Source: Octopus vulgaris (Eukaryota). From it: a DNA stretch of 64,000 nt. Below are positions 475 to 63,996 of the stretch, in pieces. The notes below the pieces were generated by a model. The model did not search any database and was not told the DNA's origin. It was given only the letters and a program-made list of their open reading frames with translations. The stretch is from NCBI GenBank assembly GCA_951406725.2, contig OX597832.1, forward strand, positions 54,312,001 through 54,376,000. The letters are read 5' to 3'. The first letter of the stretch is position 1, and the number at the start of each line of letters is the position of its first letter. A program made the position numbers and the translations under genes.

Positions 475-690
475 TAGTTTTAATATATTTTAAATGAAAG
501 AGTATTATGGTTGTTGACCGGTTTCGCTTTCGCTGATCATGACATTGAAATTATGGTGATTTCATACACGAACATGGACTAAAAACTTCTTAACAAAACA
601 CGAAATCACAATAATTTCAATGTCATGATTAGCAAAAGCAAAACCAGTTGACAACCACAAAGCTCTTTCATTTAAAATATATTAAAACTA
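475..690. mobile_element. Fold-back element (~89-bp arms) with a hammerhead-like motif in each arm; probable Penelope-derived non-autonomous element
   Basis: 475-563 is the reverse complement of 602-690; arm consensus tgtc ATGATYA GC GAAA GC GAAA CCGG TC gaca. Confidence 0.65.
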
Positions 691-992
691 TTCTTTTATT
701 TGTTTCAGTCATTTGACTGTGGTCATGCTGGAGCACCACCTTTAGTCAAACAAATCGACCCAACGCTTATTCTTTGTAAGCCTACTACTTATTTTATCAA
801 TCTCTTTTGCCGAACCACTAACTTATGGGAATGTAAACACACCAAAATTGGTTGTCAAGTGATGGCAGGGATACAAACACAGATACACAAACACACACAC
901 ATATGTATATATATATATATATATATATATATATATATTGTTTTGGTAGAAGGAAACTGAAAGAAGCCTGTCATATATATATATATATATAT

Positions 993-2490
993 ATGTGGAA
1001 GAAGGGTTTAGAATCGAGGGGCCTTAGAGTCAACCTAGCTAAAACCAAAGTACTAATAAGTAGGAAGGTAGACAATCCACAAATGTCTTCAGGAAGATGA
1101 CCCTGCTTGATCTGTAGAAAAGGTGTAGGTAGAAACTCTATAAGATGTACCCAGTGTAAGCTATGGACACATAAGAGGTGCAGCAATGTCAAAGGAAGGC
1201 TAACTGGGAAGATAGTTTTTGTATGTGGCAGATGCTCGGGAGCATTAAACTCTGAAAATCTGCAGAAAACAACTTCTGTCACTTTCCAGGGGGAAAAACT
1301 AGAAGTAGTTGATAGTTTTCGTTATCTAGGTGACCAAGTCAGTATTTGGGGTGGGTGCGTTGAAAGTGTAACTGCTAGAGTAAGAATAGCCTGGGCAAAG
1401 TTTAGGAAGCTCTTACCTCTGCTGGTGACTAAAGGCCTCTCGCTCAGAGTAAAAGGCAGACTGTAAGATGCATGTGTACGAACAGCCATGCTACATGGCA
1501 GTGAAACATGGGCCGTGACTGCTGAGGACATGTGTGAGCTCGCAAGGAATGAAGCCAGTATGCTCCGATGGATGTGTAATGTCAGTGTGCATACTCGACA
1601 GAGCGTTAGTACCTTGAGAGAAATGTTGTACCTAAGTGTGTACCAGTTGTGGTGTGCAAGAGAGACGATTGCGCTGGTATGGTCATGTGGCGAGAATGGA
1701 TGAAGATAGGTGCGTGAAAAAGTGCCAATCCCTAGCAGTTGAAGGAACCCGTGGAAGAGGTAGACCCAGGAAAACCTGGGACAAGGTGGTGAAGAACGAC
1801 CTTCGAACTTTAGGCCTCACTAAGGAAATGACCAGCGACCAAGACCTTTGGAAATATGCTGTATGTGAGAAGACCAGGCAGGACAAGTGAGTCCAGCCCA
1901 CTTATGCATGCCTTTCCTCCTTTGGACACACAAAGACCTGTTGAGGCAAGCGAAGTCGATATTGAACCTCATCCAACGACAGGCACCCATGCCAACCCCT
2001 CTTTGCTTGCGAAGACCTGTTGGGGCAAGTGAAATCGAAATCGGAATCGAAATTGAACCAATCCTATGACTGGCACCCGGTAGATGCCAGGACCCCTAGA
2101 CTGGTGGTACGTAAAAAGCACTATCCGAATCGTGGCTGAAGCCAGTGCCGCCTCAACTGGCTTCTGTGCCGGTGGCATGTAAAAAGCACCATCCAAATCG
2201 TGGCCGAAGCCAGTGCCGCCTCGACTGGCTTCTGTGCCAGTGGCACGTAAAATGCACCAATCCGACTGTGGCCGATGCCAGCCTCACCTGGCACCTGTGC
2301 AGGTGGCATGTAAAAAGCACCCACTACACTCTCAGAGTGGTTGGCATTAAGAAGGGCATCCAGCTGTAGAAACATTGCCAGGTCAGATTGGAGCCTGGTG
2401 CAACCGCTGGCTCTCCAGACCTCAGTCAAACCGTCCAACCCATGCCAGCATGGAAAGCGGACGTTAAACGATGATGATGATGATGATGAT
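993..2490 (+). mobile_element. 5'-truncated, decayed RTE-clade LINE: RT C-terminus with inserted PHD-like finger, plus 3' UTR with tandem repeats and (GAT)n tail
   Basis: GLRVNLAKTKVL, LEVVDSFRYLG, MLHGSETW, RRLRWYGHVARM, RGRGRPRKTW; stops at 1098 and 1464, frameshift near 1630. Confidence 0.92.
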
Positions 2491-3608
2491 ATATGTATAT
2501 ATATATATATATATATATATATATATATATATATATGTGTGTGTGTGTGCACACACACACACACATATATATACATATACATGTGTGTGTGTGTATGCAT
2601 ATGTGATGTGTGTGTTTCAAAAAAGGAAAATGGAAAAAATTTTCAGTATTATTGGACTGAAGCAACATGAAATGAAGTGTTTTGCAGTGTCCTTTCTTTT
2701 TAATATTCTGTAAGAACATGTCAAGCCATGGGGGAACACATTACTTTACTTTCAAACAGGTGAGGGTTTACGACAAGAAAGGCATTCTGCCATAGAAAAT
2801 CTGCCTCAATAAATTCTCTCTGATCCATGCAAGCATGGAAAAGCAGACGCTGAATTAATGCTGTTGATAATGATTATCATCTTGGCTTGCTAATTAGCAA
2901 CGGTATTTCACCTTGAACAGATTCTCCGATAGTAAGAAGTAACGCCTGAATTACAATTCCATTTTTTGTATTCCACCTTCTTCACTTCCCTATCATTTCC
3001 CAGTGAATCCGAGAAATTTAACTTCCTCAGATGAGCTTTATCTTCTCTGAGAGCTAATTTGAGAGCTATTTATCTTCAGTTCAAGGCACCTATTGACTAA
3101 GTTGATAAAGTATTGGATTACTAGCTGAGGGATTAACAGTTCTTATCCTTTCAGCGCAACTATACACTTTCCATAAAGGTAAGGAGGTAACTTTCACAGG
3201 GAAATGAAACCGTTACCATGGATACATGGTACCTATTTATATCTCATTAATAAGGAGAATAAGCAATGTTTTGGTAAGGAGAGTAAGCAGTATACAAAAT
3301 AAATTGTGTTGGTTGTTGAAAGTAGTAGGCAGCTGTTCCTGTACCAAACCTTTGCCCATATTCTCTAATTATCTAAGACAGGCTTACAGTTAAAGTTCAG
3401 TTATTAATCTAATTTGATCTGAGTGAAACAGACCATTGTTTATTGAACATATCCAGTGTCTATACCATAGATTTCATGATGATTCTGTCACCTGTCCTTA
3501 CTAATCTACTCACATGATGTAAGCAACAACCAATAGAACTGTTAAAGAAGTAACTATTGGACTGTTGTATAGTGAAACTATACAGCCCTCCCGGTAAAAA
3601 GTGGTAGT

Positions 3609-3919
3609 TTTTTTTTGTTGTCTGTTCCTTCTCGAGCCATGCCTGGCTCATAAGGGCTGGTTTCCCGGTTTCTTGGCGTATAGGTTCCCCACCTGGATGG
3701 GATGCTGGTCCATCACAGGTGAGCTGCAAGATGCAGGAGGAAAGAGCGAGAGAAAGTTGTGGTGAAAGAGTCAGCAGAAGTTCACCATTACCTTCAGCTG
3801 GAGCTATGTGGAGTTTAGGTGTTTTCGCTCATAAACACACACATCGCCCGGTTTGATATTCGAACCCGCGATCCCTCGACCGCGAGTCCGCTGCTCTAAC
3901 CACTAGGTCATGTGCCTCC
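3609..3919 (-). mobile_element. tRNA-derived SINE (family C head, tail type 2)
   Basis: tRNA-like head (A box CTAGTGGTTAGAGC, B box GGTTCGAATA); 13-bp TSD aaaaagtggtagt at 3596-3608 and 3920-3932; sister copy at 48213-48514. Confidence 0.88.
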
Positions 3920-62893: not shown

Positions 62894-62972
62894 CTGAAAA
62901 TATATTACATATAAAAATGCTTTTTTATAAACTTCAACACACTGTTTAATCAATATTAATTTATTTTATACA

Positions 62973-63459
62973 CCGTAAATCCTCGAGTATAGTCCGCCCT
63001 TGAGTATAATACGCAGGGGATTTTTAGGATGCTGTACCTCTGAAAAAACTAAACCTTGTGTATAATACGCATCCCTTCTCTAACTTGCGCCAAAGAGGTC
63101 TATATAACGTTCTTGGTTTGTAAAAATGTATACGGTAACATCCTTTATTATTATTGTATATATAACATAATGCAAACGTGTAGCTTTTTTGTGCATTTTG
63201 TTTGCAGAAAATAAAGAAATAACAGTAATAACGCTTAATAAATGTTGCTTACTGCAAGTTATGGATGATTCTTTTATGACTTCATTGCTTTCAGGCTTAG
63301 CTTAAGGTATTTTCGCGCCCGACATCACAAAATGCGTCCGAATAAACATTGCTGGACAGCAAATAAAGTTTCACTTTTAACCTCATATATAGTACGCACT
63401 ATTGATTTAGACCTTTAAATTTTGGGAAAAAGATGCGGATTATACTCGAGGATTTACGG
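62973..63459. mobile_element. Tc2/pogo-like MITE
   Basis: TIR ccgtaaatcctcgagtataRtccgc / gcggattatactcgaggatttacgg followed by TA. Confidence 0.85.
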
Positions 63460-63918
63460 TATGCATGGCTGATATCACAAAGACAATACTAGTCAAGCCT
63501 TATATCACAGCTGATTATATATATATATATATCTTGAAAAATATATTACATATAAATTTAGTGAGATAATAAGGTAATGCTGTTGGTAGGGAGGAAGGTG
63601 AGAGAACATAGAATAAAATATAACAGGATAAGATACAATAAAAGGGGGAAATGAAAGAGAATGAAATATAGGCGTAGGAGTGGCTGTGTGGTAAGTAGCT
63701 TGCTTACAAACCACATGGTTCCGGGTTCAGTCCCACTGCGTGGCACTTTGGGCAAGTGTCTTCTGCTATAGCTTTGGGCCGACCAAAGCCTTGTGAGTGG
63801 ATTTGGTAGATGGAAACTGAAAGAAGCCCGTCGTATGTATGTATATATATATATATATATATATACGTATATATATAAATTGATCAAAATAAAATAAAAA
63901 CATGATGCGAAGGATTCA

Positions 63919-63996
63919 GCGGTACATATGTTTCGGGCCTTTATTAGACAGATTTATAACAATGCATAATGTATGTCTGTGGCCTTCTTCAGCTGC
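63919..63996 (-). ncRNA. Hammerhead-like motif with long stem II
   Basis: gcag CTGAAGA AGGCC...GGCCC GAAA CATATG TA ccgc; palindromic ACATATGT. Confidence 0.55.

Follow-up and report, generated by a model that had tools for sequence, protein, structure and literature searches.

Family-specific core variants of a minimal type I hammerhead fold in the tail ends of Octopus vulgaris repeat families, at least two of them Penelope-like

Minimal hammerhead ribozymes (min-HHRs) were described by Cervera and De la Pena (2014) in the pseudo-long terminal repeats (pLTRs) of metazoan Penelope-like elements, where in vitro cleavage was absent for single motifs and weak for dimers (PMC4209133). The consensus in the supplement to PMC4209133 has N at position 7, and transcription is reported to begin in the upstream pLTR (PMC6765202). 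Similar hammerheads with a short stem III, Penelope-linked and cleaving as dimers according to the title and a review summary, were reported by Lunse, Weinberg and Breaker in 2017. Known natural variants include U3-A8, a viroid U4C, a 2-bp stem II, and U10.1.U11.1 (Perreault et al. 2011, PMC3088659). Here, we analyzed a 64,000-nucleotide (nt) stretch of the Octopus vulgaris genome (the window, within which all positions are counted unless a locus is named), in which an initial annotation had listed 13 hammerhead-like stretches. Each window element is a copy of a repeat family, with ten families in total. We consider it very probable that the tail ends of these families, which are Penelope-like for two and likely so for the rest, keep a minimal type I hammerhead fold that acts in the RNA of a master element. 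The phenomenon is mostly explained by the min-HHRs known since 2014; the part that the literature searched did not show is the family-fixed G3-C8 and A3-U8 pairs together with large families carrying U4C or A6U.

All 13 listed stretches were present where they had been placed, each with a hammerhead-like layout. A first descriptor required a type I layout with a palindromic stem III, left positions 3 and 8 unconstrained, and permitted one additional base after A9. It gave eight matches in the window, six of which had a paired 3-8, whereas 100 local dinucleotide shuffles averaged 0.97 matches and 0.36 matches with a paired 3-8. A version that did not permit the additional base gave just one window match. 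When G10.1-C11.1 and a paired 3-8 were required and C4 and U6 were allowed post hoc as variants already seen, this strict descriptor gave eight window matches, compared with 0 in every one of 100 shuffles. A 400-kb sample of forty arbitrary 10-kb genome stretches contained 14 matches, 8 of them distinct, compared with 0.0 to 0.2 in 10 shuffles; the 3-8 pair was Watson-Crick in all eight distinct matches (seven C-G and one U-A). The hammerhead motif is real and genome-wide, and it is not equally frequent in shuffled sequence, an outcome that the initial annotation had named as a refutation.

These counts leave a negligible probability that the motifs are chance matches in A+T-rich repeats. Loose descriptors do give a background of 0.4 to 1 match per window, and a loose genome-wide pattern for non-C3 cores with an ACGT stem III (1,944 matches versus 1,146 in the control) was swamped by this background and by decayed C3 copies. 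However, the strict counts are far above those in shuffles, every family pattern described below had a control of 0, and motifs lie in the 3′ untranslated regions (UTRs) of reverse transcriptase (RT)-coding elements, with covarying 3-8 pairs and a free N7. The chance reading was rejected on the shuffle counts, the covariation scaffold, and the position tallies of the A6U family (see below). The Rfam hammerhead models had no match in the window, either among the 150 of 160 rows listed in a first scan or in a repeat scan, but this blank says little because the models also miss a tandem array with a canonical-looking motif. Energy-only folding and cofolding of monomers and dimers did not discriminate and were not informative on dimer cleavage.

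The octopus motifs have in common with the min-HHRs of PMC4209133 the type I layout, the extra base after A9, G10.1-C11.1, a short stem I, and a palindromic stem III. In both, mostly dispersed single copies belong to many families per genome, and a U3-A8 variant occurs (in Schistosoma in PMC4209133). The representatives in Fig. S3 of that paper comprise C3-G8, two U3-A8, and one U3.G8, with no A3-U8, G3-C8, C4, or U6; the supplement file searched has no octopus entry, and the descriptors of that study would have missed octopus-type variant cores. The variants in PMC3088659 are described as rare, and position 6 is represented there by A6C rather than A6U, whereas the octopus variants have become fixed in families that range in size from thousands to over 18,000 copies. 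A3-U8, G3-C8, and A6U were not found as natural family states in the open-licence literature searched or in the corresponding part of the PMC4209133 supplement.

The number of families is ten because the copies at 41245 and 48897 belong to one family, as do those at 14635 and 52016; families 9751 and 32026 are mutually related. The flanks had been called unrelated, which fits the existence of ten distinct families but not these three pairs. We counted the copies of families genome-wide with exact patterns (reversed-pattern control, 0 for each) and tallied core states by eye among the first 100 matches listed per pattern. The core CUGANGA-H...GAAA...UH with G10.1-C11.1 and short stems is exact in 8462, 41245, 48897, and family 63919, and the same core with a compensatory 3-8 pair is seen in families 14635/52016, 512, and 61171. 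C3-G8 was found in 90 of 100 listed copies of family 41245 (3,697 copies), and A3-U8 was found in 89 of 100 listed copies of family 512 (140 copies). For family 14635 (3,250 copies), the 100 listed copies comprised 90 U3-A8, 7 U.G, and 3 C.A, and for family 61171 (3,534 copies) they included 96 G3-C8 and 2 G.U. As judged from these tallies, the 3-8 pair is fixed per family and takes all four Watson-Crick forms, including G3-C8 and A3-U8. The C-G, U-A, and A-U pairs noted originally thus hold as family states, but the G-U reported at 61171 is a decayed G3-C8, given the tally of that family. Covariation was also followed on a homologous scaffold with a 2-bp stem II and ACCGGT (3,077 copies; control, 0), the pattern of which excludes G3. 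Among 100 listed rows, A3 occurred with U8 in 29, A8 in 1, and C8 in 1; U3 occurred with A8 in 61 and with G8 in 7, the latter forming a U3.G8 wobble subfamily; and C3 occurred with U8 in 1. This covariation is near perfect but comes from few evolutionary events. Stem III is palindromic in the family majority lines, as had been proposed, although in the old family 23238 this is so only after allowing for CpG decay.

Two families depart from the NUGANNA layout that had been given for all elements; their states, the two most unusual, had been missed by the initial annotation. The first is U4C (CCGACGA; 9751 to 9785, minus strand, predicted site 9755), the state of a young, probably nonautonomous family of 10,950 copies that ends at (TA)n and has C at position 4 in 76, U in 22, and A in 2 of 100 listed copies. 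The second is A6U (CTGTAGA; 32026 to 32061, minus strand, predicted site 32030), a hammerhead-like fold in a family that also ends at (TA)n and is the largest counted, with 18,056 copies carrying U6 versus 218 carrying A6. The two largest families counted therefore breach the invariant U4 and A6 of the minimal hammerhead, whereas background decay in the canonical family 41245 amounts to 4 U4C and 1 A6U per 100 listed. When positions 3 to 8 were left free, the A6U family had 17,889 copies, and the 100 listed had C3 in 98 and U4, G5, U6, and G8 in 96 each; position 7 was U in 42, A in 24, C in 23, and G in 11. Among 14 copies fetched for other reasons, identity was 96% in the core, 96% in stem II, 82% in the flanks, and 43% at N7, so that core and stem II are better conserved than flanks, a comparison proposed at the outset. 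Position 7 is the core position that hammerheads leave free, so selection on the fold appears still to act in master lineages that have U6. Because A6C and U4C have lower activity in vitro, slow cleavage is predicted for both A6U and U4C. The fold appears to be conserved in families predicted to be poor at fast cleavage. The prediction that CUGANGA searches miss copies was supported: canonical-core matches of one class numbered 16,256 (control, 301), fewer than the A6U family alone, although the two patterns differ in strictness.

The Penelope link is direct for one family. Used as a protein query, the frame beside one family 41245 copy had 150 scored matches among 4,212 candidates. Of the 16 loci collected through the protein alone, 13 have family 41245 sequence after the stop codon of a GIY-YIG frame on the same strand, and longer frames of the element match RVT_1 at 27.7 and 40.9 bits (Pfam cut-off, 29.6). 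A Penelope-type element coding for RT and GIY-YIG thus has family 41245/48897 as its 3′ UTR. One window copy, at 41244 to 41289 (plus strand, predicted site 41284), is an intact C3-G8 minimal hammerhead in what remains of a Poseidon-like 3′ UTR; a second copy lies at 48896 to 48941 (plus strand, predicted site 48936). A search with a second RT fragment yielded young Neptune-like elements; their open frames reach 753 to 811 amino acids (aa) and match RVT_1 and, weakly, GIY-YIG. The labels Poseidon-like and Neptune-like are tentative and based on sequence motifs and on a cysteine linker of the kind given in PMC8557442. A hammerhead core was recognizable, by descriptor or by eye, in the 3′ UTR of 12 of 20 Neptune-like loci, with U3-A8 in clades N1 to N3 and A3-U8 in N4, and a tree of 15 frames groups the loci by clade. 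A copy of family 512 (L060) has 64% identity over 208 nt to the N4 3′ UTR (E = 2e-16), and by this alignment family 512 is homologous to the Neptune-like 3′ UTR. Its window element is a head-to-head inverted pair of a Neptune-like 3′ end (440 to 690, extent approximate). Pfam found nothing in two short protein fragments, and a PDB sequence search found nothing for a 569-aa frame. Penelope derivation, as claimed originally, is thereby upheld through RT-GIY-YIG partners for 41245/48897 and through homology for 512; the description of all elements as noncoding is not, since at least two families are the 3′ ends of protein-coding Penelope-like elements.

Several features of these elements were noted in passing. 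Near-identical Neptune-like elements (L186 to L190, L194, and L198) have frames of 753 to 811 aa and (TA)n ends and were probably active recently. A single copy of a further Neptune-like clade (L195, about 2655 to 2700), read by eye, combines a 2-bp stem II with A3.C8 and an extra U within GAAA (U13a-like). A6U family copies stand tail to tail with Neptune-like 3′ ends in one (TA)n tract at L196 (about 3330 to 3460) and L203 (about 2870 to 3000), and these shared tracts suggest a common target preference. In the Poseidon-like 3′ UTR, a tRNA-like stretch followed by (AAT)n lies upstream of the hammerhead (window, 41060 to 41160; L142 to L156, about 2100 to 2200; L177, 1290 to 1355). It contains what appear to be A-box- and B-box-like sequences, and several short copies start exactly there with a head-to-head inversion, as a short interspersed element (SINE)-like derivative driven by RNA polymerase III might. 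ARAGORN made no call for this stretch in seven of seven loci, nor did Rfam.

The other families appear to be nonautonomous, and a Penelope origin is likely for them, as read from their inverted partners, tails, and (TA)n junctions. Inverted partners (both strands within one locus) were seen in 8 of 10 families, with the figure for 14635 inflated by a query that itself held an inversion, and 3′ tail extensions were seen in 14635, 61171, and 63919 but not in 9751 or 32026. For 9751 and 32026, the evidence is limited to the (TA)n junction, 5′ ends that vary, and relatedness to copies with a canonical core. Family 14635 has a U3-A8 hammerhead (14635 to 14671, minus strand, predicted site 14638) in one arm of a hairpin insertion at about 14520 to 14810, a decayed second arm with U4G (14678 to 14714, plus strand) that was absent from the original list, and an intact U3-A8 copy at 52016 to 52052 (minus strand, predicted site 52019). 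An origin of the hairpin elements as miniature inverted-repeat transposable elements was judged unlikely on account of unequal arms, a tail on one arm, and varying inversion points. Family 8462 is represented by an intact C3-G8 minimal hammerhead (8462 to 8496, plus strand, predicted cut after 8493); the frame upstream in its longer copies may resemble a GIY-YIG C terminus, which is suggestive of a Penelope partner for this family. Family 63919 is young, with a C3-G8 hammerhead and a long stem II (63919 to 63996, minus strand) and no long open reading frame (ORF) in about 1.3 kb of shared sequence.

Window copies differ in preservation. Those at 8462, 9751, 32026, 41245, 48897, and 52016 are intact; those at 14635, 61171, and 63919 have one or two defects each; and those at 512, 621, 23238, and 54768 are decayed or weak. 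At 512 to 544 (minus strand), a decayed A3-U8 copy has A3.C8, a stem I broken by a mismatch, and a 2-bp stem II, and its partner at 621 to 653 (plus strand) has G12A and a broken palindrome. G12A and a broken palindrome also mark 23238 to 23320 (plus strand), a copy of an old C3-G8 family whose members are 72 to 80% alike. The stem I drawn originally for the weak C3-G8 copy at 54768 to 54837 (plus strand) had used C3; in register, it has just one pair, and stem II opens with U.U at its base.

A second account sees the fold as retained chiefly for a structural role in cis, as a signal for the RT-endonuclease or a host factor or for RNA dimerization, with cleavage dispensable or selected against in short nonautonomous families. 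The contrast between the U4C or A6U states of the two largest families and the decay rates of the canonical family speaks for it, as does the lower in vitro activity of A6C and U4C (PMC3088659). Family 61171 adds a further point. Its G3-C8 hammerhead, represented in the window by a G3.U8 copy (61169 to 61219, plus strand, predicted site 61212), lies in a short element (about 61145 to 61355) with a defined 5′ end. In copies picked by their 3′ part only, the core was kept in 16 of 20 and the 5′ end lay within about 25 nt upstream, so that the template would have a defined 5′ end and the copied RNA would have held an uncut or religated hammerhead. However, these data are also explained by slow cleavage or by cleavage with religation; U4C is still sufficient for a viroid in vivo (PMC3088659); and Naiad elements spread without canonical hammerheads (PMC8557442). 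We regard the structural account as possible but doubtful.

Non-LTR retrozymes likewise have type I hammerheads and are nonautonomous and Penelope-linked (PMC7229834; bioRxiv 10.64898/2026.07.22.740005), and the window elements had been called retrozyme-like. That they are such tandem, circular-RNA-based, nonautonomous elements is improbable, even though an origin of retrozymes from Penelope pLTRs has been reported (bioRxiv 10.64898/2026.07.22.740005) and a head-to-tail array with units of about 359 nt, a 6-bp stem I, and a 4-bp stem II exists elsewhere in the genome (L021). Retrozymes are defined by tandem repeats, whereas the window families are dispersed, truncated, or hairpin insertions; no head-to-tail array of a window family was seen in aligned loci, where one 14635 locus had short internal flank duplications. 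Moreover, stems I are mostly 3 to 5 bp, and two families sit in RT-coding elements. The array itself (L021, 2272 to 4548, near 20.00 Mb), with identical C3-G8 hammerheads in two opposed blocks, is unrelated to the window families and likely a non-LTR retrozyme; a U3-A8 motif at L031 (90 to 131) looks related to it.

All hammerhead elements are intronic in a gene on the minus strand, an exon peptide of which is 100% identical to a sodium/hydrogen exchanger (NHE) labelled Octopus vulgaris. Its coding exons lie at 62901-62800, 59511-59389, 55871-55782, 53301-53173, 49746-49645, 44129-44064, 42149-42030, 38941-38885, 28138-27971, 9177-9115, and 6074-5946; the coding span in the window is 62901 to 5946, with the last coding exon just left of the window. 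One annotated isoform includes the exon at 27971 to 28138, which another skips, and the 30 nt at 18098 to 18127 may be a microexon. Minus-strand copies do lie in sense in the NHE pre-mRNA, as the initial annotation stated, but nothing suggests action there. Domestication of sense copies by the host to cut or regulate this pre-mRNA is very improbable. Six listed copies are in sense, and those at 14635 and 52016 have a common palindrome; however, with seven copies antisense there is no strand bias, and these are typical or decayed representatives of families that number in the thousands. A copy on its own has no stable stem III, and within a hairpin insertion the motif would be hidden in double-stranded RNA. 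Each intronic copy is likely to be an inert, solitary passenger of NHE and is probably irrelevant to the gene. Elsewhere in the window, a common SINE-like repeat occurs as four tandem 223-nt copies (24732 to 25606), and fragments of frames resembling long interspersed elements and mariner-type elements were recognized by eye (971 to 1816, 26290 to 26601, 53508 to 53828, and 59615 to 59944).

In the reading that we favor, the window elements would be 5′-truncated tails of ten families, and the fold is likely to be of consequence only within master-element RNA. There, two motifs would pair through their palindromic stems III, cut slowly, and possibly religate; a Penelope protein would copy the elements in cis or in trans, and target-primed reverse transcription would leave 5′-truncated and inverted copies. 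Selection on master lineages would keep the 3-8 pair in any Watson-Crick form, GAAA, the stems, and the palindrome while tolerating U4C and A6U. Several observations weigh against this reading. Energy-only folding of several window copies favors other pairings, and RT and GIY-YIG Pfam scores fall partly under the curated cut-offs. Families 9751, 14635, 23238, 32026, 54768, 61171, and 63919 yielded no coding partner, and upstream walks for 9751, 32026, and 63919 met no long ORF. Inverted partners were seen in 0 of 11 loci for 9751 and 0 of 9 for 32026. Finally, covariation counts are not independent samples, because the family states represent few independent events.

The success of the A6U and U4C families, predicted to be slow, favors tolerance of slow cutting or a structural role. 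We offer only as a tentative proposition that octopus Penelope lineages represent a natural core mutagenesis in which all four 3-8 pairs, U4C, and A6U each drove large expansions, the hammerhead serving mainly as a recognition or dimerization signal for the RT-endonuclease and attenuated cleavage helping short nonautonomous RNAs to be copied whole. On this view, copies with noncanonical cores exceed in number those of the canonical class counted, and selection would act on the fold rather than on fast catalysis. The interest of the system is carried by the large A6U, U4C, and G3-C8 families and not by the intronic copies. Evidence from nature in support of an isosteric 3-8 pair now extends past U3-A8, and a census that relies on CUGANGA can overlook a large share of hammerheads. 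With young elements that have frames of 753 to 811 aa and matched natural core variants that differ widely in copy number, the question of whether the hammerhead is a catalyst or a structural signal is directly testable.

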